A program made the translations under genes and the position numbers. Shown here in pieces: positions 5,787-35,988 of a stretch of DNA of 64,000 nt. Origin of the DNA: Candidatus Iainarchaeum sp. (GTDB taxonomy: Archaea; Iainarchaeota; Iainarchaeia; Iainarchaeales; 1-14-0-10-31-34). Numbering within the stretch: position 1 is the first letter of the stretch; every line of letters begins with the position of its first letter. The notes below the pieces were generated by a model. That model was not told the origin of the DNA. It saw only the letters and a list, made by a program, of their open reading frames with translations, and searched no databases. The stretch spans positions 101,879-165,878 of the forward strand of contig JBFMAK010000003.1 in assembly GCA_040755695.1 (NCBI GenBank), read 5' to 3'.

Positions 5787-5790
5787 TTCA

Positions 5791-6060: not shown

Positions 6061-6065
6061 TTTTT

Positions 6066-6962: not shown

Positions 6963-7038
6963 AAAAAAACACTTGAACTGCATTAAACCGTAATTCAATT
7001 AATAATTAAAAAACAAAAAAAAGAAAAAGGGAGAGGAA

Positions 7039-8387: not shown

Positions 8388-10622
8388 TTGAACAAAGTCT
8401 TCCTTGCACTATGCATTCTAACACTAACCCAATTAATAGGCACTGCAAGCGCCTTAAGCGTAACAATATCAATTAATTCAGGCGCACAATACACAAACAA
8501 CAACACAGTAACTTTAACCCTAACATCAGACGATCAAAGCGTAAACTGCGATTACGCAAACGACTCAAATTCAAATTACAGCGGAAGCCCAACGCCCTTC
8601 ACTGCAACAAAAAGCTGGACATTAAGCGCAGGAGACGGCGCAAAAACTGTTTATTATAAATGCACTGATGTGAACTTAAACACAGCAGAAGCAAACAATT
8701 CAATAACACTGGACACAAGCGCTCCAACAGTGAATATTTTGCAGCCAAATGGAGCTACAACCTCAAACACTGTGTCCTTTGACTTGAACGAAACAGGAAG
8801 CGAAATAAACTTAAGCACAGTAACAGTGCTGCTCAACGGAGCAGAATCATCCTTCAATTCCTCAAACTGCACCTTAGACGGAGGGCTTAACTACCACTGC
8901 TCTTACACCGAAACAAAAATAGACAAAAACGGAAATTACACAATTGACGTTAATGCCCAAGACAACGCAGGAAATTTGGGCACTGCAACATCCACTTTCA
9001 CTTACACTGACTCAACTCCTCCAAGTGCTCCCACAAATTTTACTGCAACAGGGGGACACCTTCAAATAAGCCTTAATTGGACTGCAAACACTGAATACGA
9101 CCTAAACGGATACAATATTTATTTCAGTACAACACAAAACTTTGACACTAATGCTCAAACACTTTTGATTTTTACAACCTCAAACTCTTATCCCCACATA
9201 TACCTTCAGGCAAGCACAACATACTACTACAAAATAAAAGCAAAAGACAAGACAGGCAATGAATCAACAGCAAGCAATGCAAACGCAACAACAAATGCTC
9301 CTGATGGAACGGCCCCAACAACAGCCTATTCAGGGCCTGATGACGCATGGCATAATTCAAATGCAAGCATCACATTAACATGCAGCGACACAGGAGGAGC
9401 AGGATGCAAATTAATCAGCTACAGAATTAATTCAGGTTCATGGAATTATGTAAGCGGCCCAAGCTCGGCCTTCACCATAAGCAATGAAGCAGACAACCTG
9501 CTTGAATTCTATTCAACAGACAATTCAGACAACAATGAATCAATGCAATCAAAGCACGTGAAAATAGACAAGACAGTTCCAAAGCCTTCACTTACAGCAA
9601 CAGGCTACAGCTCAAGAATAGAATTAACCTGGAGCGCTATAACGGACTCCCTTTCAGGGTTAAAAGAATATTTCGTGAAAAAGAATGATGAGGCATGGAT
9701 AAGCAATGCCAGAAGCACAACATACAATTTTGCTGGCTTAACAAACGGCACATTGTACAACTTCAAATTAAAGGTTGTAGACAACGCAGGAAATGAAACA
9801 GAAAGCGACCCTGTCTCTGCAACGCCAACTTCATCCTCAACTTCAGGCAGTTCAGGCGGGGGCTCAAGCGATACAACTGCCCCTAATTTAAGCTGGACCT
9901 TCCCAGCAGACGCAAACTATGAATTGAAAGATTATAATATTACATTAAAAGTCAATGCATCAGACTATGACAGCGGGCTAGCAATAATAATTTTATCATA
10001 CAGGAAGACAGACCAGAACACTTACACTAGAATCACAAATATTACTGAGCCAACAAACGGAACAAACTCCTATAAATGGGAGCTTTCCTCAGACATGAAT
10101 TCAGGAACACACGAATTAAAGGCCGTAGCAAGAGACGAGGCAGGAAACATTGCAACAAAAACAATTACAATAAAAATTACTTTGCCAGCAGCAGTAAATC
10201 CAGCAAAGCCAGCAGACCAAAATAAGGTTGAAGACAAAAACAAGACAACAGGAACAGAAGACAAAAATAAAAGCAAAGAAACAGTAGGCACAGCAGTGGG
10301 AACAGAAAACCAGCTTGAAGGCACTGCAGGGAAAGGAGAAGAAACAACAAATCCCTTCACAGGCCTTGCTTCAGGATTAATGAAAAACATAATCCCAGTA
10401 ATTGGAATAATTGTAGTGCTTGTAGTAATAGCATTCGTTGCAGTAAAAGCAAAGAACAGGGTAGGGCGCCTTGGAAGGGACGACTTGGTCGGAGTCAATG
10501 CAAGAATAGAAACAGGATTTCATGGAATAAGCTCAAAGCCAAGCCCGCCAGGAAGCAAGACATTAGAAATAATCAAGAGAGAAATAGAGGCAGAGCACAC
10601 AGGAAAATTCGCAAGAAAATAA
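8388..10622 (+). CDS. Secreted cell-surface protein with FN3/Ig-like repeats, N-glycosylation sequons and a C-terminal TM anchor
   Basis: Signal peptide MNKVFLALCILTLTQLIGTASALS. The protein is Thr/Ser/Asn-rich, with repeated DNAGN-type Ig-like motifs and an FN3-like segment. A TM helix (IIPVIGIIVVLVVIAFVAV) lies near the C-terminus. Confidence 0.7.
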   Translation: MNKVFLALCILTLTQLIGTASALSVTISINSGAQYTNNNTVTLTLTSDDQSVNCDYANDSNSNYSGSPTPFTATKSWTLSAGDGAKTVYYKCTDVNLNTAEANNSITLDTSAPTVNILQPNGATTSNTVSFDLNETGSEINLSTVTVLLNGAESSFNSSNCTLDGGLNYHCSYTETKIDKNGNYTIDVNAQDNAGNLGTATSTFTYTDSTPPSAPTNFTATGGHLQISLNWTANTEYDLNGYNIYFSTTQNFDTNAQTLLIFTTSNSYPHIYLQASTTYYYKIKAKDKTGNESTASNANATTNAPDGTAPTTAYSGPDDAWHNSNASITLTCSDTGGAGCKLISYRINSGSWNYVSGPSSAFTISNEADNLLEFYSTDNSDNNESMQSKHVKIDKTVPKPSLTATGYSSRIELTWSAITDSLSGLKEYFVKKNDEAWISNARSTTYNFAGLTNGTLYNFKLKVVDNAGNETESDPVSATPTSSSTSGSSGGGSSDTTAPNLSWTFPADANYELKDYNITLKVNASDYDSGLAIIILSYRKTDQNTYTRITNITEPTNGTNSYKWELSSDMNSGTHELKAVARDEAGNIATKTITIKITLPAAVNPAKPADQNKVEDKNKTTGTEDKNKSKETVGTAVGTENQLEGTAGKGEETTNPFTGLASGLMKNIIPVIGIIVVLVVIAFVAVKAKNRVGRLGRDDLVGVNARIETGFHGISSKPSPPGSKTLEIIKREIEAEHTGKFARK

Positions 10623-11061: not shown

Positions 11062-13833
11062 ATGGCTTTGAATGCAATAACAATTATAGGCGCAGGACCT
11101 GTTGGGTTAAAGACAGCAATAGAGTTAAAGAAGGAAGGCTGGGACCCAAAAGTAATAGAAGAACACACTGAAATTGGGGTTCCAGAAAACTGTTCAGGCC
11201 TCATAAGCGTTTCAGGAGTAAAAGAAACAAAATTAGACGTAGAAGACATTACAGTCAACAAAGTCAAAGGCGCAATAATCAAAGCGCCTAATGGAATTGA
11301 ATTAAAAATAGAGAGAAGCAGACCAGTGGCATATGTTATAGAAAGAAAGAAGTTAGACAAAAAGTTTTATGCCGAAGCCCTCAAAAAAGGAATTGAGGTA
11401 AGGACAGAGACAAGGCTCATAGACCTAAGGAAAGACACCTTATTCCTGCAGTTCAGGCAGAGAGGCGAAATGATGAAAACAGAGCTTCTCATAGGAGCAG
11501 ACGGCGTGAACTCAAAAATAAGAAAATTAATGAATTTAGGCGCGAACCCAGAGCACTTTGTCCTCACAACGCAAGTGAGAGCAAAAGGCTCATTCAACAA
11601 AGACTTCGTGGAATTAAGTTTTGGAGAACAGTACAAAGGATTCTTTGCGTGGACAATTCCAGAGAGCAGTACAACAGCAAGGATTGGGGTTGGAGTAAAG
11701 CCAGGCATGAACCCAAAAACTGCCCTTCAGAAATACATGAATGGAATGAAAGTAGAAGTATTAAGCGAAAGCTCTTCACTGATTCCAATAGGAAAGCCCC
11801 TGAGAGAAATTTCAACAGAAAAAATTCTTTTACTGGGAGACGCTGCCTTTCAAACAAAAGCAACAAGCATTGACTATGAAGAGCCAATAATAATATTAGA
11901 AAACGGTCTGATTAAGACTGTTAGGATAGGAGAATTAATAAATAATGAAATGAAAAAAAACGAGAACAATATAAAAACTATCACTGGAAGCCCTGAAATA
12001 AAGCTATTGGAACTAAAAAAAGAAATTAATTCTTTTTCTCCAATGAAAAATGGCTCAGAACCCAAATTTAGAAAAATAGCAAACATTCTAAAACATTCAA
12101 TAAAAGAAGACTTGTATGAAATTATTCTCGAAAAAGGCTATAGAATAAAAGCAACTGAATCACACAGCATAATTACTTTGGGGCAAAAACAACTTGAAGA
12201 AAAGAAGGTTTCAGAACTAAAAGCAAACAAAGACCATTTATTAATGTGCACACGCCTGCCAAACAATGAAATACTAAAAGAAATAAACATCATTGAATTT
12301 ATTTTAAGAGAAAAACCAGAATTAATCCCCTTAATTAGAGTTAAAGGGGGAAGAAAATACATTTTTTCAAAACAAAGTGAAGTACCCAAAAATTTGTTGA
12401 CAGCTTACTGGTATGAAGATTCAATTCCATTAAAAGTTTTTGTTGAAAAAGGTATAATACCAAAAGATGCAAGAATAAGTTACTTAAAATCAGGTTTAAA
12501 AATAAAAAACGGGCTTCAAATCACGCCGGAATTATGTAGGCTGTTAGGGTATTATGTTGCAGAAGGCAGTTGTAAAAAAGGAAAAAATATTAGTTTGACT
12601 TTCGGCAAACAAGATATTGAGAACGGAATAGTAGAAGACACAATTAAATGTATTCAATATGTTTTTGAATTTAAACCAACAAAATATCAGTACAAAAAAA
12701 ACCCTTTAACCAAAAAGATTTCAGCTGTAACAATAACCTTTGGTGGTTCATTACTTTCAGAACTTTTCTCTAATATTTTGAAAGGCGGAAGAAGCGCCAA
12801 AACAAAAGAAGTACCTTTCATTATTTTTAATGTGCTAGAACACCTTAAAATTGAATTCTTAAAGGGTTATCTCAACGGCGATGGAACAATAAGAATAAGA
12901 GAATCAAGTAAAAGAAAGAACTGGAATGCAGAAATTTCTTGCAAGACGGTAAGCAGAAAACTTGCAAGTGACTTAATAACCCTTTCTCTTCAGATGGGAA
13001 TGCTTCCAAGTATAGAAGAGTTTTCTGCTAAAGAAAGAAAAATCTATGGCAAAAAAATTGTTGAAAGCAATGGTTACAAAGTGGCTTTCTCAAAAAAAGA
13101 GGACTTACTGAGACTTTCAGAAGTTTTCCCAAAAAAAACAAGTGAGTTAATTGGTTTTCTTAATGAAATTAAATCAAAATCAACTTCGGGCATACCAAAA
13201 GAATATTTTGCCTTCACTTCAAACCAAAAATATGCTACAGAACTAATAGAAGAATTTGGGCCATCAATATATACAGCTTACAATAAACTTGATTCTAAAA
13301 GAGTTTCCTTTGCAATGCAAAAAATGATAACAAAAAACGAAAGAATTCAATTAATACAAAATTTAATTCAATCAAATATTGCAGTATTTAAAATAAAAGA
13401 AATAAGAAAAGTTAAACCAACCAATAACGAAGTTTTTGATGTTCACATCCCAGAAACAAACATGTTTGTTGGAGGGCTTGGAGCAATACTCCTTCATAAT
13501 ACAGGCGGGGGCATTATTACAGGAATGATGGCAGCAGAAGCAGCAGTAAAGACAATAAGCAATTACTACAAGAAAAAAAAGCCTTTAACTGAATACAGCA
13601 AACACTTAAGCCATTTAAACAAGGAATTAGAATTGCACTGGAGGATAAGAAAATACTTGAATTCACTGAACGACAAGCAATTGAACGAACTGTTCATCAA
13701 ACTAAAGAAAGCAAGAATTGAAGAATTCCTTGCAGAGCACGGCGACATGGACAGGCCCTCAAAATTCATGGGCAAAATCCTTACAACCCCAAGGCTGTGG
13801 AGCCTGGCACCATTAGCATTAAAGCTCAGGTGA
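11062..13833 (+). CDS. Geranylgeranyl reductase (FAD-dependent, archaeal lipid saturation) interrupted by an intein
   Basis: IIGAGPVG FAD dinucleotide motif and ELLIGADGVNSKIR motif. The GGR signature GDAAxxxxPxTGGGI is split as GDAAFQTKAT | intein | TGGGI. Confidence 0.85.
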   Translation: MALNAITIIGAGPVGLKTAIELKKEGWDPKVIEEHTEIGVPENCSGLISVSGVKETKLDVEDITVNKVKGAIIKAPNGIELKIERSRPVAYVIERKKLDKKFYAEALKKGIEVRTETRLIDLRKDTLFLQFRQRGEMMKTELLIGADGVNSKIRKLMNLGANPEHFVLTTQVRAKGSFNKDFVELSFGEQYKGFFAWTIPESSTTARIGVGVKPGMNPKTALQKYMNGMKVEVLSESSSLIPIGKPLREISTEKILLLGDAAFQTKATSIDYEEPIIILENGLIKTVRIGELINNEMKKNENNIKTITGSPEIKLLELKKEINSFSPMKNGSEPKFRKIANILKHSIKEDLYEIILEKGYRIKATESHSIITLGQKQLEEKKVSELKANKDHLLMCTRLPNNEILKEINIIEFILREKPELIPLIRVKGGRKYIFSKQSEVPKNLLTAYWYEDSIPLKVFVEKGIIPKDARISYLKSGLKIKNGLQITPELCRLLGYYVAEGSCKKGKNISLTFGKQDIENGIVEDTIKCIQYVFEFKPTKYQYKKNPLTKKISAVTITFGGSLLSELFSNILKGGRSAKTKEVPFIIFNVLEHLKIEFLKGYLNGDGTIRIRESSKRKNWNAEISCKTVSRKLASDLITLSLQMGMLPSIEEFSAKERKIYGKKIVESNGYKVAFSKKEDLLRLSEVFPKKTSELIGFLNEIKSKSTSGIPKEYFAFTSNQKYATELIEEFGPSIYTAYNKLDSKRVSFAMQKMITKNERIQLIQNLIQSNIAVFKIKEIRKVKPTNNEVFDVHIPETNMFVGGLGAILLHNTGGGIITGMMAAEAAVKTISNYYKKKKPLTEYSKHLSHLNKELELHWRIRKYLNSLNDKQLNELFIKLKKARIEEFLAEHGDMDRPSKFMGKILTTPRLWSLAPLALKLR
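11866..13500 (+). other. Intein (545 aa) with LAGLIDADG homing-endonuclease domain, inserted in GGR
   Basis: Starts with Ser (SIDYEE...). Block B TESHSIIT, LAGLIDADG blocks LLGYYVAEGS and LKGYLNGDGT, and terminal ...VFDVHIPETNMFVGGLGAILLHN followed by +1 Thr (TGGGI). Confidence 0.8.
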
Positions 13834-14217: not shown

Positions 14218-14694
14218 TTAAGTGACAACGCATATGGCTCCATTTTTTTGTTTGTCACTGAATACTTGATTAGGCGTAAAATATTTAAGGCTTGAGTGCG
14301 GAGTGTTGTTGTACTCGCGCTGGAAGCGCGAGAGTAAGCGGTTAGCGTGTTTGAGGTTTTGAACCTCGAACTCATTCAAGAATCGTTTTATTTTTTTGAT
14401 GACTGCTTCTGCTTTTCCGTTGCATTTGGGATTGTGAATGCGTGTGTGAATGTGTTTGATGCCTAATAGACTGGCATCAAAGTTTTTGTGGTATTGTCTA
14501 CCATTGTCAGATAACAAGGCTTTGAATCCCCCCGTTTCTCGGATTGCTTGTTGTAGGTTGTCTATTGTGTTTGCAAGCGTTGCATGAGAATATGCTTGCA
14601 GTGCAAACAGTTTTCTGGATGCATCATCTTCATAGAATGAGAAGCAACAGTGTACTCCATCCAAAATGCGTTTTCTGCCCCAATCCGTATGCAT
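14218..14694 (-). CDS. Transposase C-terminal part (integrase core rve domain, DDE)
   Basis: HTDWG ... LLSDNGRQY ... NPKCNGKAEAVIKK match the D, D, E regions of rve transposases. The reading frame probably continues upstream of the first Met. Confidence 0.65.
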   Translation of the reverse strand: MHTDWGRKRILDGVHCCFSFYEDDASRKLFALQAYSHATLANTIDNLQQAIRETGGFKALLSDNGRQYHKNFDASLLGIKHIHTRIHNPKCNGKAEAVIKKIKRFLNEFEVQNLKHANRLLSRFQREYNNTPHSSLKYFTPNQVFSDKQKNGAICVVT

Positions 14695-14778
14695 TAATGA
14701 TAAAGCGTGCCTGCGCTCGTAACGCTTGCATTTTGTCTTTGGTTTGGGTTTTGGAGGAAACCAACGCTTCTTATAGCG

Positions 14779-15111
14779 TTATACTGTCCTCAAGCAAACC
14801 TTTCCCAAAGCTATCCATGCAAGCGTGCTGGACTTTCCTTGCACCAGCAAGGCTCTTAACCTGTTCAAGACAGGTTGCACTGTTTTGTTCCAGATTCTTT
14901 TGGCCTTTCTCTTAAACCTGATTGGTTGACCAGACAATGTGCGGTTCAACCAACGCGAAAGAGTCTTTCGCGGAATCCGCAAGACTCTATCTAACTCTCT
15001 CTGGCTAACCTGGCCAGAAACAAGTCTGGCGACTGCTTTTTCAACAATATCATTGCTATATTTTATAGTGGGAACCTCCATTCCGTTACTCAAAAAATGG
15101 AGTTCCCACAA
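14779..15111 (-). CDS. Transposase N-terminal HTH part (orfA)
   Basis: VSQRELDRVLRIPRKTLSRWLNR is a helix-turn-helix. It is in a different frame from the rve ORF, so a frameshift, programmed or pseudogenising, is implied. Confidence 0.5.
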   Translation of the reverse strand: MWELHFLSNGMEVPTIKYSNDIVEKAVARLVSGQVSQRELDRVLRIPRKTLSRWLNRTLSGQPIRFKRKAKRIWNKTVQPVLNRLRALLVQGKSSTLAWIALGKVCLRTV

Positions 15112-19712: not shown

Positions 19713-19886
19713 ATGGACTTAAGCCATTACATCAAGAAAAACAGGGTTAAAGCAGGAGACTTTGGGGCTCCAGCCAAGAGATGCCTTCAATGCGGCAAAG
19801 AATTAGAGAGAAACGAATCCCATTTATACTACCAAAGCTTCTGCTGCGAATTCTGCAAGCAAAAATACCTAAGCCCGAAATTATAA
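19713..19886 (+). CDS. Small zinc-ribbon protein (57 aa, CxxC...CCxxC)
   Basis: Translates to MDLSHYIKKNRVKAGDFGAPAKRCLQCGKELERNESHLYYQSFCCEFCKQKYLSPKL. Below the ORF-track length cutoff, so not listed there. Confidence 0.4.
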   Translation: MDLSHYIKKNRVKAGDFGAPAKRCLQCGKELERNESHLYYQSFCCEFCKQKYLSPKL

Positions 19887-19953
19887 TTTAAAGCAGGTTT
19901 GGAAAAGTTAAAGCGAAAAGCTTTTAAATAACTTAATTCTATGTTAATTCAAC

Positions 19954-21942
19954 ATGAAAAAAACCCAATACGCCCAAGGTCTTCCACACACCACTCTGAA
20001 GATGCTAGCATTCTCTTTATTCCTGATTTCAGGACTCACATTATTGTCTACCCTTCTTTCACCTTCAGAAGGCTGGAAAGTAAAAACGCCTTACACAATA
20101 TTATTAGAAGGAGAGGAAGGAGCACCACCCTCGCCTCCACCAGAAACAATTTCTCCTCCTCCAGAACAACAAGGGCCTCCACCTGAAGGAATGCCTCCCG
20201 AAGGAGCGCCACCACAAGGAGACCAAGGGCCTCCGCCAGAGGGAATGCCTCCACAAAGAGAACAGCCTCCTCAAATGACTGCAGAGCAGATGTACCAGCA
20301 ATTGCCTGCAGAGGTAATTAATGCTGGAGTCAGCTTATCAGACATTCAATCTTTATACAGCATGGGAATAACAGACCCTGCGACAATGCATGTCCAAATA
20401 GGAAATTTAATTGCAGAAAAAATGGCTCCGCAAGGAGTAAGCGAAGGAATGCAAGGAATGGGGCCTCCGTCAGGAGAGGGAGGGCAAGCGCCTCCATGTA
20501 ATAGCCCTGAAGAATGCCAGGCTTACTGTTCTGATCCAGCTCACGCGCAAGAATGCCAGGGAATGGGCCCAGGAGGACAACAAGGAGAACCATTTGGACA
20601 AGGAATGGAGCCACAGCAAGGAGAACAAGGAGGAGAAATGAGGGAAGGCCCAGGAGGCTGCAAGAGCATGAGCGAATGCATTGCTTATTGTAAAGATCCA
20701 GCGCACAGAGAGGAATGCGGAAGAAAAGGGCCACCTGAAAAGAAAAAAGGCGGGCCACCTGAAGGAATGATTCCAGACAGAGTGCCTCAAGAAGTAGTTG
20801 ACGCAGGAGCAACACAAGAATTCCTTGAAGTAATTTGCTCTAACATGAAATGGCACATGGAATGCGATTTTTTGGGCGCAGTGGATGCAGCAAAAGAAAA
20901 CTTCTCTCAGGCAGGAACAGAAATAGGAATGACCTTTGATTTCAGCAATTTAGAAGCATTAAAGGCATTGGTTAGAACAAGAATTGACGCCATGTGCAAT
21001 TCAACTCAAGACAATTTTGGAACAAACATGAAAACATTCATGGAGTTTGTTAACAGCGGTATAATGGACTCTGCAATGGAAGGGATTGGAGGGCAGGTTG
21101 AAGATTTCATGATGCAGAAAGCCCAAATCATTGAAAGCCAAATGGGCAATCCAGAAGAGATTGGAAGGCAAATGCAGGCTTTAGGCGACCAAATGAGGCA
21201 AACACAAGATCCAGTTCAACAGCAGGCACTGCAAGCACAAATGAATGAACTGCAGCAGAAAGCACAGCAAATGCAGAGCACTGGACAGGAAATGCAGGCT
21301 TTAGGAAACAAGATGGAGCAGATTTTCGGCAACATGGAGCAGAAAATGGAGGCATCAATGCAGGCAAACAAGTTAAAACCTGAATGCCAGGAGATGGAGA
21401 AGAGGGCAGTTGAAGCCGAATTGGCTCTTAACTATAAAATGTTGGATTTTGGTTTAAAGATGGTTGAAGAACAGGAAATAGAATTAAGAAAGTATGGCAT
21501 TGAAGTAGAAGAATTAGCTGAATTAAAGGCTTGGTTAATGCAACAGCGAGAGAAAATAAAGACTGTGTTTGCTGTTGGAGCGACAGATGAAGCAAAGTTT
21601 GCTTTCGTTAAAGAAATGCAGGATGGAATGGCTAAATGGGAGAGAGAAATACCTAAAGCAATAATAAAGGAGTTAGCTGGCACTTTTGTTCCAAGAGCAA
21701 AAGAAAACATTGAGAAGTACAGGCTGGCAGCAAAATACGCTAAATCAATTGGAAAGAATAATGAAGCAAAGCTATTGAATGAATTGGCAAACGAAATTGA
21801 AGATTATGTGGTGGCAGTGCAAGAAAAACTCAAGACAGCATTCACACAAAAAGACCTTGAAGACCTGAAATTATATTTCATAAAAATATTTAATGCAGAC
21901 AAGGAAGCAAGAGAAATCTATGACGCTTTAAAAGAAGCTTAA
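19954..21942 (+). CDS. Secreted/membrane-anchored protein with Pro-rich repeats, duplicated Cys motif and Gln-rich coiled-coil region
   Basis: N-terminal hydrophobic anchor (LAFSLFLISGLTLLSTLL). PPEGMPPEGAPPQG repeats. Two copies of CxxxEC(Q/I)AYC(S/K)DPAHxxEC. MQALGDQMRQ.../MQALGNKMEQ... heptad-like Q-rich repeats. Confidence 0.6.
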   Translation: MKKTQYAQGLPHTTLKMLAFSLFLISGLTLLSTLLSPSEGWKVKTPYTILLEGEEGAPPSPPPETISPPPEQQGPPPEGMPPEGAPPQGDQGPPPEGMPPQREQPPQMTAEQMYQQLPAEVINAGVSLSDIQSLYSMGITDPATMHVQIGNLIAEKMAPQGVSEGMQGMGPPSGEGGQAPPCNSPEECQAYCSDPAHAQECQGMGPGGQQGEPFGQGMEPQQGEQGGEMREGPGGCKSMSECIAYCKDPAHREECGRKGPPEKKKGGPPEGMIPDRVPQEVVDAGATQEFLEVICSNMKWHMECDFLGAVDAAKENFSQAGTEIGMTFDFSNLEALKALVRTRIDAMCNSTQDNFGTNMKTFMEFVNSGIMDSAMEGIGGQVEDFMMQKAQIIESQMGNPEEIGRQMQALGDQMRQTQDPVQQQALQAQMNELQQKAQQMQSTGQEMQALGNKMEQIFGNMEQKMEASMQANKLKPECQEMEKRAVEAELALNYKMLDFGLKMVEEQEIELRKYGIEVEELAELKAWLMQQREKIKTVFAVGATDEAKFAFVKEMQDGMAKWEREIPKAIIKELAGTFVPRAKENIEKYRLAAKYAKSIGKNNEAKLLNELANEIEDYVVAVQEKLKTAFTQKDLEDLKLYFIKIFNADKEAREIYDALKEA

Positions 21943-21957
21943 AAGAAGTGAATTGAA

Positions 21958-22221
21958 ATGAATAAATTAAAACAAAAAATTTTGGTTTTGGGATTAATTG
22001 CACTAATTCTGCTAATGATAGGTTGCACTCAACCAAGCGCTCAGGGCGGCACAGGAAAAACAACAGGAGAAACCCTGAAAAGCGGTGCAGAATTAGAGAA
22101 CTTAAGCGACTTGCCTAACCCTGCATTAGGGGAAACTGACTACTTGGACGCAATTGGGGCAGCAGGAGACACAACAAACGCAATTCCAACAAAGCCCAAG
22201 ACCCCAACAACAGGCAAGTAA
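21958..22221 (+). CDS. Small secreted/lipoprotein-like protein
   Basis: Signal-like N-terminus LVLGLIALILLMIGC followed by a Gly/Thr-rich tail. Confidence 0.45.
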   Translation: MNKLKQKILVLGLIALILLMIGCTQPSAQGGTGKTTGETLKSGAELENLSDLPNPALGETDYLDAIGAAGDTTNAIPTKPKTPTTGK

Positions 22222-22303
22222 AAAAAAAAAATTCTTTCGTTTTCTGTCGTATGAAAAAATTTTTAATTAGTGCCCTCTATTTTTTTGGTTAGAGGGAGCT
22301 GGA

Positions 22304-23779
22304 TTGCACGCAAAGGAAAGAATTGAAGAAAGAGAGAAAAGAGAAACTGAAAGGCTTTTAGGCTTCAGGACAAGAAAAATAAAGAAAGAATTAATCCGCA
22401 AATTTCTGCTTAAAACTGATTCTATTGAATTGATTGAATTAAAAAACAGGCAGAAAATATACTTCCTCAAAGAATTCCCGGAGCTCTCGCTCGAAGAAGC
22501 AGAACTAGTGAAAGAGACAGTGGAAGAATTCCAGGCAAAAGAAGGCAGAGGAGAAGAAAAGAACTTGGCAAAAGAATTCAATTCCTACTGCAGGAGAAAC
22601 CTAATTGAATTAGACAGGGAACAAAAGAACTACCTGTACAAGCTGATAGAATCAATTGCATTCGGTTTCGGGCCATTAAACGCAATTCTTGCAGACGACA
22701 GCATAGAAGAAGTAAGCCTGGCAGGCTTAAGCGCAAGAAATCCAGTGCGCGTGTTCGAGAAAAGCCAAGGATGGATTGAAACCAACTTATATTACTCATC
22801 AGAGCAGACAGTCAAGGACTTAGTGAACAAGATGGCTAGAAAGATAGGGAGAAGGCTTTCAATGCAGACACCAAAAATAAATGCTGTCCTGCCAGACGGC
22901 TCAAGATTGAATGCAACAATAAAGCCTGTATCTTTTACCGGTCCAAGCTTTACTATAAGAAAATTCAGGGAAGAGCCTTTCACCCCATTAGACCTCATAA
23001 GAAACAATACCTTTACAGCAGAATTAATGGCCTTTACCTGGCTGGCACTGGAATCAGATGCAAGCATTGTGGTTGCAGGAAACACAGGCTCAGGAAAAAC
23101 TACCACATTGAATTCCCTCTTCAGTTTTGTTCCAAAAAACGAGAGAATAATTGCAGTAGAAGAAACCCCAGAAATAAAACTGCCTCACAGGCACTTAATC
23201 AAATTAAATACAATTGAAAGCCTTGGAATAGGAATGCAGGAACTTATAACAGACACACTGAGAATGAGGCCTGACAGGATAATTGTAGGGGAAATAAGAA
23301 GCAGGGAAGAAATAAACGCATTCATTGACACAATGCTCGCAGGACAAGGAAAGGGAAGCTATGCAACATTTCACGCGCAAAGCTCGCAGGAAGCAGTAAC
23401 AAGAATGAAAAATTACGGGATAATAGACCTAGACCTCCAATCAATTGACCTCATGCTAATACAGAAGAGATGGACTCAAGTAAACCTGAAGAAAAAACAG
23501 AGAAAGGAGACAAGGAAAATAATTGAAGCAAGCGAAATTCTATTGCAGGAGGGCAAGCTGAAGCTCAACAAATTATACGAATTCAATTACAAGAAAAACG
23601 AATTAGAGAAAAAAAGCCACGGCATTAAAGCAATGCAGAAGATAATGAACTGCTTGGGCTTAAGCAAAAGGAAAGCAGAAAAAGAAATAAAAAGAAGGGA
23701 AAAAATGCTCAAAAAAATGCTTGCAGAAAAATACAGCTTGAAGGAATTCTTTGAAAGAATAAACCAAGAAATGCAGTGA
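22304..23779 (+). CDS. Type IV pilus/Tad-like secretion ATPase (FlaI/TadA/CpaF, VirB11 superfamily)
   Basis: Walker A VVAGNTGSGKTT, Asp box and His box (RIIVGEIRS...ATFHA). TTG start preceded by AGAGGGAG RBS. Confidence 0.85.
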   Translation: MHAKERIEEREKRETERLLGFRTRKIKKELIRKFLLKTDSIELIELKNRQKIYFLKEFPELSLEEAELVKETVEEFQAKEGRGEEKNLAKEFNSYCRRNLIELDREQKNYLYKLIESIAFGFGPLNAILADDSIEEVSLAGLSARNPVRVFEKSQGWIETNLYYSSEQTVKDLVNKMARKIGRRLSMQTPKINAVLPDGSRLNATIKPVSFTGPSFTIRKFREEPFTPLDLIRNNTFTAELMAFTWLALESDASIVVAGNTGSGKTTTLNSLFSFVPKNERIIAVEETPEIKLPHRHLIKLNTIESLGIGMQELITDTLRMRPDRIIVGEIRSREEINAFIDTMLAGQGKGSYATFHAQSSQEAVTRMKNYGIIDLDLQSIDLMLIQKRWTQVNLKKKQRKETRKIIEASEILLQEGKLKLNKLYEFNYKKNELEKKSHGIKAMQKIMNCLGLSKRKAEKEIKRREKMLKKMLAEKYSLKEFFERINQEMQ

Positions 23780-23785: not shown

Positions 23786-24601
23786 ATGAAAATTGAAGAA
23801 GAAAAAGAAAAAATTTTGCTTGAAACACAAAAAAACCTTGAGAAAGCAAGGATAAACAAAAACGCAGAAAAATACTGGAAGGAAATTATTGCTTATTCTT
23901 CAATTGCAACAATAATTGCCTGGATTACTGCAGCGCTTTTAACACAGGAAATAATATTGAGCGCAATCCTTGCATTCACGCTTCTTGTTCTCGGAATCGC
24001 CTTGGGATACTATTATCCCTTGCACAAAAAGAATTCGATTGCAGGAGAAATAGAGAAGGAACTGCCTTTCGCCTTAATGTCAATGGCTGTAGAATTGAAC
24101 ATGAACCTGCCCTTCGAGAAGGCATTGAAGAATGCATCAAAAAGGAATTATGGAATTCTTTCAAAAGAATTGGAGAGGGCAACAAGAGAGATTTCATTGA
24201 AAGGAGCAAGCATACAGGAAGCCTTACTGCACTTGAGCGAGAGAATTGACTCAAGAAACTTGAAGAGGAGCATTGCACACTTGGTGAGCGTGAACGAACA
24301 GGGAAGCAAGAACGAGAGAGGAGAGCCAATAAAAAGGATTGCAAAAGAGCTTCTCTCAAAGCAGAGGGCAGAAGCAAAAGAATTTTCTGGAAAATTGATA
24401 ATCCTCTCACTGCTCTTCATTGCAGTCTCAGCAATAATCCCTGCAATGTTCCTGGCATTTGTCTCAATAGGCTCAATGTTCCTTGCAATAGAATTCACTC
24501 CAATCCAGGTAATAATAATTTCAGTAGTAGTCTTCCCTGCAATAGACTTGGCAATACTCTACCTAGTAAAACTCAAGACTCCAGTCTTTCTGAGGGAATA
24601 A
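23786..24601 (+). CDS. T2SS-F domain membrane protein (TadB-like half of FlaJ)
   Basis: Polytopic membrane protein. The cytoplasmic helical domain ELPFALMSMAVELNMNLPFEKALKNA resembles T2SSF. Confidence 0.7.
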   Translation: MKIEEEKEKILLETQKNLEKARINKNAEKYWKEIIAYSSIATIIAWITAALLTQEIILSAILAFTLLVLGIALGYYYPLHKKNSIAGEIEKELPFALMSMAVELNMNLPFEKALKNASKRNYGILSKELERATREISLKGASIQEALLHLSERIDSRNLKRSIAHLVSVNEQGSKNERGEPIKRIAKELLSKQRAEAKEFSGKLIILSLLFIAVSAIIPAMFLAFVSIGSMFLAIEFTPIQVIIISVVVFPAIDLAILYLVKLKTPVFLRE

Positions 24602-24604: not shown

Positions 24605-25540
24605 ATGAAAATCATTCCTTCATTCAATTCAATAATAGAATATTTTTTTGGGAAAAAAAGCAGGATAGAATTCGAGGAAATGCTGAAAGAGAATGAGTGC
24701 AAGAAAAATTTGGAAGGAATAATAAAAGAAAGCCTCTTGCACGGCGCAGTTGCAGCGACAATTCTTTTCTCAATTCTTATATTCCTTGAATTCCCTTTTT
24801 TTTACTCAATAATTTTCTCATTAACTGCATTCTTCGCGCCTTTAATCCTCCAATACTCTTTTCAACTGCTATTGTTTGAGAAAAGAAAAAGAGAAAAAGA
24901 AAGAATGGTTCCTGACCTGCTACTGCAGGCAAGCCTTTTTCCGAGAGGTACAGCAACAACAAAAATAATAAGCTACATGGCCAAAACAGAATTCGGCCTG
25001 CTCAGCAAGGAATTCAAAAAAGTCAATTCAGAGATAAGGAAAGGAGCATCAATAGAAAAAGCGCTTTCAAGGATGCAGCAGAGATGCAAGAGCAAGATCG
25101 TAGAGAGGGCAGCAGACCTTTTAATTCAAGGCCACTCAAGCGGGGCAGAAATGCACTCTGTGTTCAAGGAGACAGCAGAAGACGTCCTTGAAACGCAATC
25201 AATTATAAGGGAAAGGAATGCAACAACAACAATAGAAAAATACACTGTACTAATGGCAGCCGCAATAATAGTACCATTAATTTTAGGGTTGATTGTAGGG
25301 CTGATAGAAGGACTGAATTTCCAGGGCATTGCAGAGCTGAGCCTTGGATTGAGTTCAAAAGAGAGAAAGGCACTGCTTGAAGCAGCACTCACAGCAAACT
25401 TCTCATACATAATTGAATATTCCTTGATTGCCTCCATCTTCATTTCACACCATGAAGGCAACAAAAAGAAAGCAATAATTTACTCCCTTATACTAATCCC
25501 TGCAAGCATAATCACTTACACGATTGCAAGGGCATTGTGA
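24605..25540 (+). CDS. T2SS-F domain membrane protein (TadC-like half of FlaJ)
   Basis: Second T2SSF-like protein. It follows the first after a 4-nt gap, consistent with a split platform protein. Confidence 0.7.
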   Translation: MKIIPSFNSIIEYFFGKKSRIEFEEMLKENECKKNLEGIIKESLLHGAVAATILFSILIFLEFPFFYSIIFSLTAFFAPLILQYSFQLLLFEKRKREKERMVPDLLLQASLFPRGTATTKIISYMAKTEFGLLSKEFKKVNSEIRKGASIEKALSRMQQRCKSKIVERAADLLIQGHSSGAEMHSVFKETAEDVLETQSIIRERNATTTIEKYTVLMAAAIIVPLILGLIVGLIEGLNFQGIAELSLGLSSKERKALLEAALTANFSYIIEYSLIASIFISHHEGNKKKAIIYSLILIPASIITYTIARAL

Positions 25541-27802: not shown

Positions 27803-30800
27803 CTATTTCCTTTTTCTGTTTTTCCTGTAATGGCCATTAGAGAACTTCGATTGAATTAAAGAGAAAGAGAACAGTAAAAGGGAAATGAACAAAATTAACA
27901 TGATTGGGTTTTCTGGAAGCGAGGGCAGAGAGAAAGGCTGGTTCTGGCCTGTGCCAATGTTTACATTCATGTAATTTCCTCCTGCAGTGGATTTGACTTC
28001 CCCGTCAGGGCCAACCATTGTCTGTATGCCTTTCTGCCTGAATTCGTCGCTTAAAGGAAGCAGTTGAGCGTTCTCTGCATAATACAGTCCTTTTGTGGGG
28101 TCATACCAGAAAGCCCCATTCGCTCCCTGCATGCTGTTGAGCTGTTCTTTAGAGCCATTATATTCTAGGTAAGGCCTGCCATTCTCTGCACCGAAAGCAA
28201 AGTCGTGTGTTTTCCCGTCACTTGTTGCGACCTGGAATCCGTTAGGCGTAGACTTTATTGCATCAATTGGTTGGTCGTAAACCTTTCCTGTCTCCTTGTC
28301 AATTATTCTCATGTGTGGTATGCAGTCAGGAGGCAAGGCATAGAAAATATAACGCCTTTTGTCTGTGTCGAAAACCTGGTAAGGCCCGAATTTGGCCAGA
28401 GATTTATTGAATTGGGCTGCATCAAACTGCAGGGCAGGAGAATTAGGGTCTCCTAAAATATTTAGGTCAAATGCTGGCTCATCGCAGTCAGTCACAGGAT
28501 TCTTGTATGTTGTGGGCGTAACCTTTATTCCTTGAACGTCATTCTGGCTTAAAATGCCTTTCTCGTTGTGCTTGAGCCAGAAAATCAATTCATTTGTCTC
28601 AAGCTTGAATACTATTACCCCGTTCTTTAATTGAATGGATTCAAGCTTTCCTACATCAGGGTCGTTGTCAGCAGAGCCCAAAAGAAGAACCTGCCTGTTC
28701 GCGTAAATTTCAATTTTTGGGGCATTTTCTGAAACTTTTCTCGGAAGGCCGTCTGCAATAATTTTGTTTCCTGAAATAAAAATGTCCGGGTGAGAGTTAG
28801 TTATAACAGAAAGAACTGGTCCAAAAGCATCGCTCAAATTCTCTCCTGTCAATTCAATTCCTGTCTGCTCTTTTACTCCTTCCTTAATACAGTCTAATAC
28901 CTCATTGTTCTTTGCAATCAATTCGCTGTCCAATCCAATGCCAAAAATCAGAATGTTTGAATCATAAGGCAGCCCAAGCCTTGTGAGCGTGTTAGGAATT
29001 TCAATTGCAGGAATATTAGTGTTAATGGAAGAAAGCCTCACGTTATCCTCTGAGGTAATAACTGGCTGGCCGTTAGCTGAAAGCACTCCTGTTTCTTTAT
29101 TTAATTCAACTGAAAGATTCTTGTCCTTAACTACAGTCTTGCCTGAGGTAATATAGCTTGCAACAGAACTGTCTCCAGGGGCAATCCATAAATAGAAAAG
29201 CTTTGAGCCCGCAACAGCCCCATCATTATTTCCTGAAACATCCAATGTCGCCTGCACTAAATCATTATCTGCTGCACTCTTAGTTAATTGTCCGATTTGG
29301 TCTTTCACATTATTCATTGCATCCTGTGTTATGCCCCCAGCCCCATTAAAGAGAGCTTCAGCCTTGTCTTTAGCGCCTGCAACAAAGTCTGAAACCTTTT
29401 CAGTTGAAAGCTTCTGCACATCCTTGTCTGAAGCCTTCTGCTCTTCTTTGGGGGGAATAGAAAATTGGACGTAATAGCCTTCCTCTGTATCAATGCAGTC
29501 CTGAAGCCTTGAAGCAACCACAATCTGCTGCACTGCACTGGTGAAAATCCCTGTCATTCCAAATATAGCATAACTCAAGTTCTCAGTAATGCCTAATGCA
29601 GCGGCAGCGCCTGAAGGACCCAATTTTTTTGCCAAGCCAATACCAAAGAATGCTTCTTCTAATTTGTCAGTGCAGGTCGTCTTCTCTTTTATTGCTTTCT
29701 CCAAATCTACTGGCTCGGTTGTTGTGCTGTCCTCAGTCTTTCCATCCAAATTCATGTGATGGGCATAGCTTATAAGCATTGAGCCTTTCTTTTTTTCTTT
29801 TTCCGGGGTGTCCTCTAAAATGATTGATTTTTGGTCTCCAATAGACCTGAAGTTTGCATTAAAGAAGCCAGTCTTTGAGGTTACAGTTATACTGCAGGAG
29901 GCCCCGCAATCATCTTTTCCGTAAGAATAGAACGCAATGCTTCCAACTTTTGTCCTTAAACCTGCTTCTGGTTTTGTTAATTTATCGTAAGTTTCTTTTG
30001 CAGGATTGAATTTATCTGAAACAGTATTCAAAACCCATTTCCAGGGAAGACTGTTAATTATTCTGACAAACATGTCTCCTGTGTCTGATCCTTCATTGGC
30101 AAAAAAGTCAATGAAAGCGTCATCAAAGATTTTTCCTTCTTTTGTGCTGAACAGAACATAACGCCAGCTTGAAGGAAGCTGGTAAGCACTCAATTCCTTG
30201 AAGCCTGCTCCTTTTTTAGCCCACCAGTAAAGATAAGGATAGGCAGTCCATTTTAATGCCCCGCCCTTTGTAGAAAAATATGCCTTGAAGAGCTTTTCCT
30301 CTTCTTTCTGGAATTTGTCCAAAACAGAATAATATTTTTTGTTAGCCCAGTTATGCTCTATAAAGTCCTCGTAAAGCCAGTTAGTCATCTTGCTTGTCTT
30401 CTTTATCCTGTCCTGGATGTAGTCGCCTGAAATTTCCCCCATTCTCTTTGGCGTAAGGACGTCTTCAACCTCTCTCCCTGTTTCATCAAGATAGGTTGCA
30501 GGGCCCCATGTGCCGGACTTGTAAATCTTAATGTTTGCTGGATTCCTTGAAACAATGTAATCCACAGTGCTTTTGTCTACAGGAATGTACTTGTTGGGTT
30601 CAATTTCTGCTACAACCTGCCTTGAAAACTTTCCTTTCATCACAGACTCTTTTAACCCTGCACCATCCATTGTAACTTCAAGCGGACCAACATCTTTTAT
30701 CTGGTATAATTGAATGCCGTCTCCTTTCATCCTGTATCTCTTCCATCCCTGGAAACTTCCTGCAAAATCTTTTCCAAGACCACCATATTTTGGGTCTCCT

Positions 30801-32296
30801 TTAAAAGTGTACATTATGTTGTTGTAAACGCTTGGGTCTGAAGAAATCGGAATAAATGTTTTTGTTTCTTCATTGAAGACAGCCTTGTAAGTCATTCCTG
30901 TTCTCTCCTGGTTGGCTAAATAAACAGGAAAGTCAGAGCCTATAATGTCATCGTAATTCACTGCAAGCTTTGTAAGGCCTGTTCCCCTTTCAGCATAAGC
31001 CTGGGCAACCAGCTTTTCCTTCAATGCCCTCTGCTCTGCAGTGAGAGCTCCAGGAAATTGGTCGTCAATTTGCTTTAATGCATGCTTGAAGTCATCATCT
31101 ATTTGTTTTGCAGCGAACTCTTCGGCATTATTGAATCTTTTCAAGTACTTGAAGGTATTCATTGCGTGCTTTCTTTCTTCTAAGGTTTTCATTCTTTCAA
31201 ATAATCCTCCTGGAGCCCAGGCCTTGTTCCTGAAGTCAAAGGACCTGCTAGTGGAATACATTGACATGTCTCCTGTAGCCCACTTCCATTCTATTTCTCC
31301 TAAATCCCATCTCCTTATCTCTTTGGCAAAGGTGTATGCGTTTGCCTTGCCAAACCATTGCTCTGGGTCATAAAGCTTTCCCCTAATCTTTTTTGTTACA
31401 GCCCAGTTGTCCCAGTTGCCTCCTTCAGAGAGGAATGGAATCATGCCCCTTCTTCCGGCCATCCCAAAGAGTTTGAATGCCCTTCCAAGCAGGACAGGGC
31501 CTACATTGGAAATTACAATGTCCAAGGAAAACCAGGTGTTGAAGTGCTTGTCAAACATGGAGTAAACTGAAATGACGCAGGAAGAATTATTGCAGGTTGT
31601 GCCCATTGAAGCCTTTAAGGAATCAGTGGAAATATAATTGCTGATGAAGTTTCCTGGAATCCTTGAGGCAGTGACGAACTCAATTCCGTTCTGGTCTGCT
31701 TCAGGCGATTCAATGTAGTCCTTTAGCATCTGCTTTTTCTCTGCGTCCATGTTCAATTGCTGGTCGCCCTTGTTTGAAAACAATTCCTTCAGGTCATTCC
31801 AGGCGCTTTTTGTAGCGCCCTTAATGCCTTCGCCTGAATTCCTTAAGGAAAGCTTGTTTCCATTAAGGGCGCAGGAATTGGTGTCCTTGCATCTTGCAGC
31901 TCGCAGGGTGTCATCCAATAAAATTCCAATAGAAAATCCTCCGGTGTACCTGTAATCCATCAAATACTTTAATTCGGGTACATCCATTTTCTGGTTCGGC
32001 AATTCAATTTTTGCTGCCTGGTTAGAGTCAAGGTCTGTGAGCACAGCAGTATTATTATCCAGTTTATCCCTGTCAGCGATTGGAGGCATGCCAGAGCTTA
32101 ATTCTTGTCCTTGGAAGCCCTCCTTTAAAATCTTGTCCTTGAATAAGGCGACCTCCTCTGGAGTCAAAGAAGAGGTATTACAGGAAAAGCCTGTCATTCC
32201 CTCTTCAGGCGCAGCTGCCTCCTGCGCGTAAGAATAATAAGAGAACTGGGTTGAAAGCAGGAGAATTACAACCATCAAAACAAATTCTTTTTTCAT
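27803..32296 (-). CDS. Large secreted surface protein (1497 aa) with C-terminal TM anchor and basic tail
   Basis: Signal peptide MKKEFVLMVVILLLSTQFSYYSYA|QE. C-terminus ...PSLPENPIMLILFISLLLFSFSLIQSKFSNGHYRKNRKRK (motif, TM, then basic tail). Confidence 0.7.
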   Translation of the reverse strand: MKKEFVLMVVILLLSTQFSYYSYAQEAAAPEEGMTGFSCNTSSLTPEEVALFKDKILKEGFQGQELSSGMPPIADRDKLDNNTAVLTDLDSNQAAKIELPNQKMDVPELKYLMDYRYTGGFSIGILLDDTLRAARCKDTNSCALNGNKLSLRNSGEGIKGATKSAWNDLKELFSNKGDQQLNMDAEKKQMLKDYIESPEADQNGIEFVTASRIPGNFISNYISTDSLKASMGTTCNNSSCVISVYSMFDKHFNTWFSLDIVISNVGPVLLGRAFKLFGMAGRRGMIPFLSEGGNWDNWAVTKKIRGKLYDPEQWFGKANAYTFAKEIRRWDLGEIEWKWATGDMSMYSTSRSFDFRNKAWAPGGLFERMKTLEERKHAMNTFKYLKRFNNAEEFAAKQIDDDFKHALKQIDDQFPGALTAEQRALKEKLVAQAYAERGTGLTKLAVNYDDIIGSDFPVYLANQERTGMTYKAVFNEETKTFIPISSDPSVYNNIMYTFKGDPKYGGLGKDFAGSFQGWKRYRMKGDGIQLYQIKDVGPLEVTMDGAGLKESVMKGKFSRQVVAEIEPNKYIPVDKSTVDYIVSRNPANIKIYKSGTWGPATYLDETGREVEDVLTPKRMGEISGDYIQDRIKKTSKMTNWLYEDFIEHNWANKKYYSVLDKFQKEEEKLFKAYFSTKGGALKWTAYPYLYWWAKKGAGFKELSAYQLPSSWRYVLFSTKEGKIFDDAFIDFFANEGSDTGDMFVRIINSLPWKWVLNTVSDKFNPAKETYDKLTKPEAGLRTKVGSIAFYSYGKDDCGASCSITVTSKTGFFNANFRSIGDQKSIILEDTPEKEKKKGSMLISYAHHMNLDGKTEDSTTTEPVDLEKAIKEKTTCTDKLEEAFFGIGLAKKLGPSGAAAALGITENLSYAIFGMTGIFTSAVQQIVVASRLQDCIDTEEGYYVQFSIPPKEEQKASDKDVQKLSTEKVSDFVAGAKDKAEALFNGAGGITQDAMNNVKDQIGQLTKSAADNDLVQATLDVSGNNDGAVAGSKLFYLWIAPGDSSVASYITSGKTVVKDKNLSVELNKETGVLSANGQPVITSEDNVRLSSINTNIPAIEIPNTLTRLGLPYDSNILIFGIGLDSELIAKNNEVLDCIKEGVKEQTGIELTGENLSDAFGPVLSVITNSHPDIFISGNKIIADGLPRKVSENAPKIEIYANRQVLLLGSADNDPDVGKLESIQLKNGVIVFKLETNELIFWLKHNEKGILSQNDVQGIKVTPTTYKNPVTDCDEPAFDLNILGDPNSPALQFDAAQFNKSLAKFGPYQVFDTDKRRYIFYALPPDCIPHMRIIDKETGKVYDQPIDAIKSTPNGFQVATSDGKTHDFAFGAENGRPYLEYNGSKEQLNSMQGANGAFWYDPTKGLYYAENAQLLPLSDEFRQKGIQTMVGPDGEVKSTAGGNYMNVNIGTGQNQPFSLPSLPENPIMLILFISLLLFSFSLIQSKFSNGHYRKNRKRK

Positions 32297-33643: not shown

Positions 33644-34309
33644 TTAAGCACAATTCAAATATTCCTGGCTGGCCAGAAAGCTTTTGTAGTCTGGGCTCGG
33701 CGTCCACATTATCAAGCCGACGACTGCCTCCACTGTTTCTAACGAGTCATCTTCCTTGATTTTAATTAATTTTATTTTAGAAAAAGAATTTGCGTTGGCG
33801 GAAACAGCCAGGGCAAAATCATTTATTCTACCCCTTGACTCAGGGCTGCAGGAATACTGAATTTTTTTCTTTTGGTCGAAATCAGTTGCATAAACAAAAA
33901 CAAAAGGAACTGAGGTAAGACCTTCCTCTTCAGGGGAAATAAAAAACAAGTAATCATAAGATTTTTCGACAGGCTTCATTGCAAACAATATATTCTTCTC
34001 TAACTGCTCTCTAGTGAAATCAAACTCCATGTCATCGGCATAATCCTCTTTCACTTCAGCCATAAGGAAATCAACCTCCTTTGAGGTAGAAAGGTCCTCT
34101 GCAGGATTTCTTGGAATGCTGCTGAAGAGGATTGACTTCATTGCAGCAGAAGCATAATCTGAAGTATAAGCAGAAGCAGCATAAGCGCTCACAGTCCTGC
34201 CGTACTGGCCTGAAAAATAGAATAGAAAAGTAACCAGCCCAGTCACAATAAGCAGGAAATACAATGCATCAGTAATTGCGGCCTGGCCTTTCCTGTTTCT
34301 TAACTCCAT
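33644..34309 (-). CDS. Pilin-like protein with class III signal peptide
   Basis: N-terminus MELRNRKGQ|AAITDALYFLLIVTGLVTFLFYF: a charged head, KGQ cleavage-like motif, then a hydrophobic helix. Confidence 0.55.
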   Translation of the reverse strand: MELRNRKGQAAITDALYFLLIVTGLVTFLFYFSGQYGRTVSAYAASAYTSDYASAAMKSILFSSIPRNPAEDLSTSKEVDFLMAEVKEDYADDMEFDFTREQLEKNILFAMKPVEKSYDYLFFISPEEEGLTSVPFVFVYATDFDQKKKIQYSCSPESRGRINDFALAVSANANSFSKIKLIKIKEDDSLETVEAVVGLIMWTPSPDYKSFLASQEYLNCA

Positions 34310-34821: not shown

Positions 34822-34828
34822 TTCAACA

Positions 34829-35437: not shown

Positions 35438-35446
35438 TAAAAAAAC

Positions 35447-35986: not shown

Positions 35987-35988
35987 TT

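Follow-up and report, generated by a model that had tools for sequence, protein, structure and literature searches.

A predicted secreted helical protein with Cys4 modules and its small lipoprotein partner form a candidate surface unit in a Diapherotrites archaeon

DPANN archaea and bacteria of the Candidate Phyla Radiation (CPR) represent a major fraction of microbial diversity and live in physical attachment to other cells, and to our knowledge almost nothing is known of the surface molecules that mediate these contacts. Among described systems with features in common with the locus presented here, the CHCH domains (twin Cx9C) and the plant alpha-hairpinins (CxxxC...CxxxC) are disulfide-stapled helical hairpins, and the type IV pilus operons of archaea carry genes of unclear role upstream of the ATPase gene, such as UpsX in the Sulfolobus ups operon. 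Lipoproteins with a lipobox are prevalent in DPANN archaea (PMC12462473). Our analysis concerns a gene for a 662-aa protein within a 64,000-nt stretch of contig JBFMAK010000003.1 from Candidatus Iainarchaeum sp., referred to below as the window. The protein is of a familiar overall kind, a secreted surface protein of modular build that has Cys-rich repeats and is paired with a lipoprotein, while its two main building blocks, a four-cysteine (Cys4) module and a C-terminal helical domain, are both uncurated and undescribed; a full-text literature search found a description of neither. We tentatively favor a model in which this Sec-exported, elongated helical protein and its lipid-anchored partner make up a surface unit of a Diapherotrites (DPANN) archaeon, a model that we regard as plausible but somewhat short of probable.

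The product of the large gene is 100% identical to the NCBI entry 'MAG: hypothetical protein AB1467_05820 [Candidatus Diapherotrites archaeon]' (MAG, metagenome-assembled genome), and a ratio of nonsynonymous to synonymous substitution rates (dN/dS) of 0.22 against a sister genome identifies it as a real gene under purifying selection. The protein is acidic (pI 4.6), with aa 17-35 as its sole hydrophobic segment and no internal transmembrane (TM) segment; in a 19-residue Kyte-Doolittle window the hydropathy reaches 2.11 at aa 17 and at most 0.92 beyond aa 60. Its relatives bear classical AxA|Q Sec signal peptides. These features agree with a preliminary description of the locus, made from the DNA sequence alone, which had called the protein secreted, had recognized no known family and had pointed to Pro-rich PPEG repeats. 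PPEG occurs four times, at aa 76, 81, 94 and 268, and proline accounts for 33% of aa 41-110; likewise, Pfam and NCBIfam gave 0 matches each at E <= 0.1, and the best phmmer match among PDB sequences had E = 0.51. The PDB matches to flagellin and geranyl-diphosphate synthase (E 0.5-0.9) were driven by composition and were set aside. Following the Pro-rich spacer is a small helical mini-domain (aa 110-157) that is common only to the window protein and its relatives P0002, P0049 and P0050. The idea that this mini-domain is a Cys-less copy of a 2-Cys module found in CPR proteins (PPEVxxCL...CFEKF) was rejected at an hhalign probability of 1.9%.

The C-terminal part of the protein is an all-helical domain of a rare family; with aa 275-662 as the query, HMMER returned 17 proteins when 1.84 billion representatives were searched exhaustively. 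Their phmmer E values run from 1.7e-144 (P0002) and 2e-65 (P0049) down to 1.5e-4 across aa 277-662, and two alignments (A4 and A5) align the same family motifs: IPxE(I/V)xxAGAxxEF...C, RIxAxC(N/S)(A/S)T, GxExxAxGxKxExxFGxxExKM, KQxxLFxK, ELExxGxDxSxxDExxAW and AKxxGxDTxxLE. The Cys pair C295/C348 is near-invariant, with both residues gone (replaced by A and G) only in P0055. A signal peptide, in most cases with an AxA|Q site, is present in every complete member; in half of the members the domain follows directly on the signal peptide, and the rest add N-terminal extensions with Pro-rich and Cys-module segments. Every member that could be placed is archaeal, P0055 belonging to another Diapherotrites MAG and locus L007 to 'uncultured archaeon LFW-252_1', and the contexts of the family loci include archaeal RNA polymerase, diphthamide synthase and archaeosine TGT genes. 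No Pfam family common to the 18 members was found, and NCBIfam gave 0 matches on the relatives. AlphaFold models aa 279-661 as eleven helices with pLDDT 84-97, and a Foldseek search of the model against the PDB returned nothing below E = 0.3. The modeled architecture is that of an elongated helical bundle without a specific relationship, and by architecture it resembles elongated three- or four-helix-bundle surface and linker proteins such as the trypanosome haptoglobin-haemoglobin receptor, PvRBP2b, the Fap1 alpha-subdomain, talin, vinculin and alpha-catenin. The long MQALG-type coiled coil of the preliminary description stands as a Gln-rich stretch (26% Gln and 11% Met over aa 400-480, with MQALGDQMRQ at aa 407 and MQALGNKMEQ at aa 447), but this stretch proved to be the variable middle of the all-helical domain of ~385 aa, and its length varies widely across the family.

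The conserved partner of the large gene is a small lipoprotein and not a pilus ATPase. In 10 of 10 loci (the window, L001, L007, L009, L010, L011, L012, L013, L014 and L015), an ORF of 71-111 aa with a lipobox begins downstream of the large gene, within a few bases of its stop codon. A genome scan and a metagenome scan for related loci returned one locus each. According to the published rule, a lipobox reads [L/V/I] at -3, [A/S/T/V/I] at -2, [G/A/S] at -1 and C at +1 at the end of the signal peptide (PMC12462473). The partners end their signal peptides in FSGC, LFGC, LMGC, LAGC, IAGC, LSGC or IFGC, and the window ORF in MIGC, a near-canonical form with Met at -3 that makes it a predicted lipoprotein by sequence. 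Beyond the lipobox, the partner ORFs continue as an acidic low-complexity chain that shares a [DE]LxxLP motif and in many cases has NP[FI]P toward its end. Through these motifs the lipid-anchored partner could hold the secreted helical protein at the membrane, and the anchored pair would then be exposed on the cell surface as a complex in contact with the environment, a host cell or viruses. At locus L007, the partner lipoprotein of P0058 (11605-11940) itself holds a partial Cys module (GDCQSYCQDQPHIQC) together with further Cys residues, so that in this lineage the Cys motif is found on the small subunit and none on the large one.

Comparison with the sister genome (L001) sets the pair apart from its surroundings, with a divergence several times that of the neighboring genes. 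The neighbors of the pair are 87-98% identical in amino acid sequence, including the Zn-ribbon ORF (98%, dN 0.007), PAC2 (96%, dN 0.029), the ATPase (91%, dN 0.054) and the two platform (T2SSF) genes (93% and 88%, dN 0.036 and 0.066), whereas the large protein as a whole is 68% identical (dN 0.19) and the lipoprotein 60% (dN 0.25). At the DNA level, identity drops to 56-83% only over 19930-22200, with omega at 0.12-0.35 throughout. Divergence is uneven within the large protein: identity is 95% for the Cys modules and 88% for the mini-domain, and dN is 0.08 over aa 41-276, against 60-67% identity, dN 0.24-0.29 and dS of as much as 2.1 in the C-terminal domain. This domain thus diverges together with the lipoprotein, possibly via allelic replacement, and such co-divergence is the pattern expected for interacting, exposed surface molecules. 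Strict pairing of a large secreted helical protein with a small lipoprotein, and fast divergence with signs of allelic replacement as in arms-race loci, would also fit a secreted effector or toxin directed against host or competitor cells, with the lipoprotein as an immunity or release factor as in bacteriocin-type pairs. DPANN archaea depend on hosts, which adds to the appeal of this alternative, but we consider it very unlikely.

The preliminary description had also drawn attention to two near-identical Cys motifs, which are found at aa 182-201 and 236-255 and which define the Cys4 module. Both fit the pattern C-x(4,5)-C-x3-C-x(6,8)-C together with the flanking signature of the family, consisting of G-P-G-G before C1, E-E before C2, Y/F before C3, D-P-x-H/N after C3 and E-E before C4. 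They are the only two biologically plausible occurrences of the motif in the six frames of the window, and in shuffled versions of the 662-aa protein even one such motif arose in just 1 of 20,000. In the AlphaFold model of the full-length protein each module consists of two short helices (H185-192/H195-201 and H239-247/H249-258) with pLDDT 86-94. The suggestion of a small duplicated Cys domain therefore holds insofar as each module is a folded unit, but the module did not originate locally and then duplicate: ~300 copies were found, mostly in proteins of Patescibacteria/CPR. This count, and with it the size of the family, rests only on a phmmer search of 5.8 billion proteins with the 662-aa protein, which gave 48 hits. 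One of the 48 matches over the full length (P0002, 67% identity) and 46 others match via the Cys region alone, with E values for CPR proteins down to 2.5e-29; all 84 of the module fragments from these database matches align to module 2. Word-indexed profile searches with alignments A5 and A3 returned almost nothing. Hits with a named source come from Wildermuthbacteria, Giovannonibacteria, Parcubacteria and 'Patescibacteria group', and at four loci of Cys-repeat proteins the neighboring genes are ordinary bacterial ones. The module also occurs in the C-terminal-domain family members P0050 (3 copies), P0055, P0059, P0061 and P0063, and as a fragment in one MAG labeled Nanoarchaeota.

By sequence, the Cys4 module is a member of a large uncurated repeat family with the consensus GPGG-C-[KR]-[GS]-K-E-E-C-x-A-Y-C-x-D-P-x-[H/N]-x-E-E-C-[ILV]-x-F-A-x-x-x-G-[LF]-[MI]-x-x-E-E-A-x-x-A-K-K. 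In a scan with the Cys positions masked, the four Cys were retained in 302 of 302 modules, with a C1-C2 spacing of x4 in 36 of them. No Pfam or NCBIfam model covering the module was found, and a profile of 67 modules searched against PDB sequences gave a best E of 0.88. The Pfam models AtDEF-like, ADAM10_Cys-rich, SEP and Tfb2_C each matched one CPR protein at or below cutoffs and leave the repeat unexplained. The closest known counterparts of the window protein are uncurated multi-repeat Cys proteins of CPR bacteria (e.g. HYW97_01385 of Wildermuthbacteria, HYT01_00765 of Giovannonibacteria and HYS45_02955 of Parcubacteria), which share the pattern GPGG-C-x5-C-xxYC-xDPx(H/N)xEEC, Sec signal peptides and PPEG-type proline-rich segments. 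They differ in carrying 3-10 tandem long-form modules with a period of 48-54 aa, where the window protein has two short-form ones, and each long-form module has two extra helices (FAxxxG(F/L)xxxEEAxxAKK). In a model of a three-module CPR fragment (36-row alignment, pLDDT 92.7) the long form is a three-helix unit with C2 and C3 on helix α1, C4 on α2 and EEAxxAKK as α3. The extension after C4, FAxxxG(F/L)(M/I)xxEEAxxAKK, is absent from both window modules, which stop at C4 and pass into Gly/Pro linkers (QGMGPGG, GRKGPPE), and in this they resemble short modules at the C-termini of P0005 and other CPR proteins. The CPR proteins also have a hydrophobic C-terminal tail and a small membrane protein with NPF repeats encoded upstream, and have neither the helical domain at the C-terminus nor the downstream lipoprotein.

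The CPR loci have a consistent organization of their own. At four of them, a protein of 76-92 aa is encoded directly upstream of the Cys-repeat gene (L003 7736-7987, L004 7730-7987, L005 7778-8008 and L006 7716-7994). This protein combines a single TM helix at the N-terminus with NPF repeats at the C-terminus (e.g. ANPFKNIKTNPFE), and the two genes form a conserved two-gene cassette. The NPF repeats loosely recall the NP[FI]P tails of the DPANN lipoproteins. In most of the CPR proteins P0003-P0047 the C-terminus is a short tail of hydrophobic or amphipathic character with a basic residue after it (e.g. ...SLFQAIIQFFTNIFR and ...NLLRIIQNFLKNFFK), and this tail may be a C-terminal anchor or sorting signal without a known family. 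Tandem 2-Cys repeats of the form PEEC-x7-C-xxIMxE, with Met or Phe in the place of C3, occur in two members of the C-terminal-domain family, P0060 (aa 141-250) and P0062 (aa 123-225), and may represent a reduced relative of the Cys4 module. The Cys4 module type itself would build the surface proteins of CPR bacteria. A bolder extension of the surface-unit model would see the module as a structurally unprecedented extracellular mini-fold shared by, and exchanged across domains of life between, the ultra-small episymbionts of the CPR and DPANN radiations, and the helical protein with its lipoprotein as a DPANN-specific, recombination-diversified system of surface recognition for host attachment or virus evasion; we regard this extension as unlikely.

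On whether the four Cys serve disulfides or a metal, the evidence leans to disulfides. CPR bacteria encode MdbA-like thiol-disulfide oxidoreductases, often beside VKOR (10.1101/335083). The Cys4 module shares with CHCH domains and alpha-hairpinins its form as a very small helix-turn-helix unit whose stability is expected to come from two disulfides. The alternative is an extracellular metal- or redox-active protein in which each Cys4 module would take up a metal ion, Zn or Fe, with Cu(I) or a different soft metal held by the Met/Gln-rich helices. It could draw on the invariance of the four Cys in all 302 modules, which counts in favor of the disulfide reading as well, and on the model, in which C2 and C3 stand at i/i+4 on one helix, where a mutual bond is impossible, with His or Asn following; the protein is furthermore 6-11% Met with MxxxxxxM-type motifs, and the habitats of the organisms are largely anoxic. 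The details of the family speak against metal binding, however, and the His variation, the C3-C4 spacing, the losses in P0055 and the Sec-type signals speak also for disulfides. At the His position of 'DPAH', 62% of modules have His and 34% Asn; C3 and C4 are separated by 6 or 8 residues, and the Cys spacing fits none of the known metal signatures (CxxC knuckles, CxxCxxCxxxCP). Two modules of P0055 have lost C3 and C4 together while retaining C1, C2 and the signature. The signal peptides, read from the sequences, are of Sec type without a twin arginine, and this speaks against an Fe-S cofactor on an exported protein. Richness in Met is not family-wide, with Ile/Leu in its place in P0052-P0058, and no match to a metal-binding family was obtained. 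We therefore consider the metal alternative quite unlikely, and within the surface-unit model two disulfides most likely staple each Cys4 module, and the modules would serve as rigid beads in an N-terminal stalk together with the Pro-rich spacer.

Table 1. Features of the large protein, its partner and the adjacent genes, with positions in the window.
Feature	Position	Strand	Details
TATA-box-like element	19920..19932	+	GCTTTTAAATAAC (also written TTTTAAATAA); 34 nt upstream of ATG, sequence reading
Large gene	19954..21942	+	662 aa, ATG start, stop codon included; ORF list
Signal peptide or signal anchor, aa 1-40	19954..20073	+	Basic n-region, hydrophobic core MLAFSLFLISGLTLLSTLL
Pro-rich PPEG/PPE spacer, aa 56-107	20119..20274	+	Predicted disordered; pLDDT <50 over aa 30-105
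Small helical mini-domain, aa 110-157	20281..20424	+	pLDDT ~90; kept in alignment A9
Cys4 module 1, aa 182-201, short form	20497..20556	+	CNSPEECQAYCSDPAHAQEC, C-x5-C-x3-C-x8-C; signature form APPCNSPEECQAYCSDPAHAQEC
Cys4 module 2, aa 236-255	20659..20718	+	CKSMSECIAYCKDPAHREEC, C-x5-C-x3-C-x8-C, GPGG before it; signature form EGPGGCKSMSECIAYCKDPAHREEC
C-terminal all-helical domain, aa 277-662	20782..21939	+	Contains C295/C348, the conserved Cys pair
Variable helical segment rich in Gln and Met, aa 400-475, within the C-terminal domain	21151..21378	+	MQALGxxMxQ twice
Partner gene, 87-aa acidic lipobox lipoprotein	21958..22221	+	LLMIGC, then ELENLSDLP, IPTKP-type tail
AT-rich 82-nt spacer	22222..22303	+	Inverted repeat CCCTCTA/TAGAGGG at 22273-22296; between lipoprotein and ATPase genes
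Type IV pilus-like ATPase	22304-23779	+	T2SSE 1.7e-37; best NCBIfam match FlaI, below cutoff
Half-size FlaJ/TadC-like platform protein, first	23786-24601	+	T2SSF 4e-8
Half-size FlaJ/TadC-like platform protein, second	24605-25540	+	T2SSF 3e-11

Downstream of the pair lie the genes of a type IV pilus-like ATPase of the FlaI/TadA superfamily and two platform proteins (Table 1), which raises the question of whether the large protein is an accessory or structural part of this adjacent machine (anchoring, tip or assembly factor) that is made together with them. The same place, immediately ahead of the genes for a FlaI/TadA-family ATPase and FlaJ/TadC-like platform proteins, is taken by genes of the UpsX type. 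The five genes from the large gene to the second platform gene share one strand, with no gap above 82 nt, pilin-like ORFs are present ~10 kb away, and the order of large gene, small gene and T2SSE gene is kept in the sister genome and in L009, whose large protein is only 37% identical. The preliminary description had placed the large gene just upstream of the pilus ATPase, which is not the case, as the 87-aa lipoprotein ORF stands between them. It had also proposed to check synteny with the Tad-like locus; a T2SSE ATPase follows the pair only in the window, the sister genome (L001/L002/L008) and L009. The L009 ATPase is 58% identical to that of the window and is its ortholog, so that the common gene order was inherited within one lineage, and no T2SSE gene lies near the pair in six other lineages (L007, L010, L011, L013, L014 and L015). 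No sequence relationship to UpsX-type genes was detected, although no search was aimed at one, and in contrast to those genes the adjacency in the window is confined to this one lineage. The upstream large genes of L009 and L011 are mutually unrelated.

Neither the signal sequence nor the layout of the transcription signals favors a role in the pilus. A class III (prepilin) signal, a short basic leader with G/A/S at -1 that a prepilin peptidase cleaves ahead of a hydrophobic helix of ~20 residues, was considered and rejected on a reading of the sequence, since the hydrophobic core follows ...HTTLK|M without G/A/S at -1, and the AxA|Q of the relatives is a signal peptidase I (SPase I) site. The pair also diverges much faster than the ATPase and platform genes, and it is parted from the ATPase gene by the AT-rich spacer with its inverted repeat, which may mark a boundary between transcription units. 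The TATA-like element may be the large gene's own archaeal promoter; because of these two elements, the layout suggests that the large gene and the lipoprotein gene form a separate two-gene transcription unit. On balance a part in the pilus appears unlikely, and the pilus genes are probably a lineage-specific neighbor that stands outside the surface unit. As a separate observation, the L009 ATPase (5156-6964) has an extra N-terminal extension of ~110 aa with weak matches to the 4Fe-4S ferredoxin domain (Fer4), which the window ATPase lacks.

Several points weigh against the model of a lipid-tethered surface unit. The sample is small, at 10 loci from ~8 lineages, and the motifs of the partners are short within proteins of low complexity. 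The window protein itself lacks an AxA site, so cleavage of its signal peptide is uncertain, and it may be self-anchored without need of a tether. The elevated dS of the C-terminal domain, reaching 2.1, points to allelic replacement or recombination and not to fast evolution alone, and the joint loss of C3 and C4 in P0055 concerns two modules of one protein only. The Cys4 mini-domain is confidently modeled without a curated family or solved analogue, is plentiful in the surface proteins of CPR bacteria and recurs in DPANN proteins; the rare helical family with its strictly kept lipoprotein partner offers a testable two-component surface unit; and the local hot spot of divergence between sister genomes is the pattern expected of a molecule that faces a host or viruses. 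If the pair were a host-recognition device, it would provide a marker of, and an experimental entry to, the specificity between DPANN archaea and their hosts, and if it is not, two domain families worth curating remain.

Other features of the window complete the setting. Immediately upstream of the large gene, a 57-aa ORF (19713-19886, forward strand) with two CxxC-like pairs (CLQCGK...CCEFCK) and no Pfam match has an omega of 0.02 against the sister genome within DNA that is ~87% identical, and is likely a real, strongly constrained zinc-ribbon mini-protein. Four consecutive ORFs of 173-221 aa on the reverse strand (33644-36001) have pilin-like N-termini (e.g. MELRNRKGQ|AAITDALYFLLIV) and no Pfam matches, and are candidate pilins for the ATPase and platform genes. 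Also on the reverse strand, a protein of 1,497 aa (27803-32296; conserved, at 1,498 aa, in the sister genome) with a signal peptide, a C-terminal TM segment and no Pfam match is, by its sequence features, a giant surface protein. A further surface protein of 744 aa (8388-10622, forward strand) combines fn3 and bacterial Ig-like domains with a C-terminal TM anchor. Two overlapping reverse-strand ORFs (14218-15111) resemble, when read by eye, an insertion-sequence transposase made up of a helix-turn-helix part and a core of the rve integrase type (...DNGRQYH...NGKAEA...). Finally, a geranylgeranyl-reductase-like FAD protein (11062-13833, forward strand) is split by an intein that carries a homing endonuclease of the LAGLIDADG type (Intein_splicing 9e-18, LAGLIDADG_3 2e-7).

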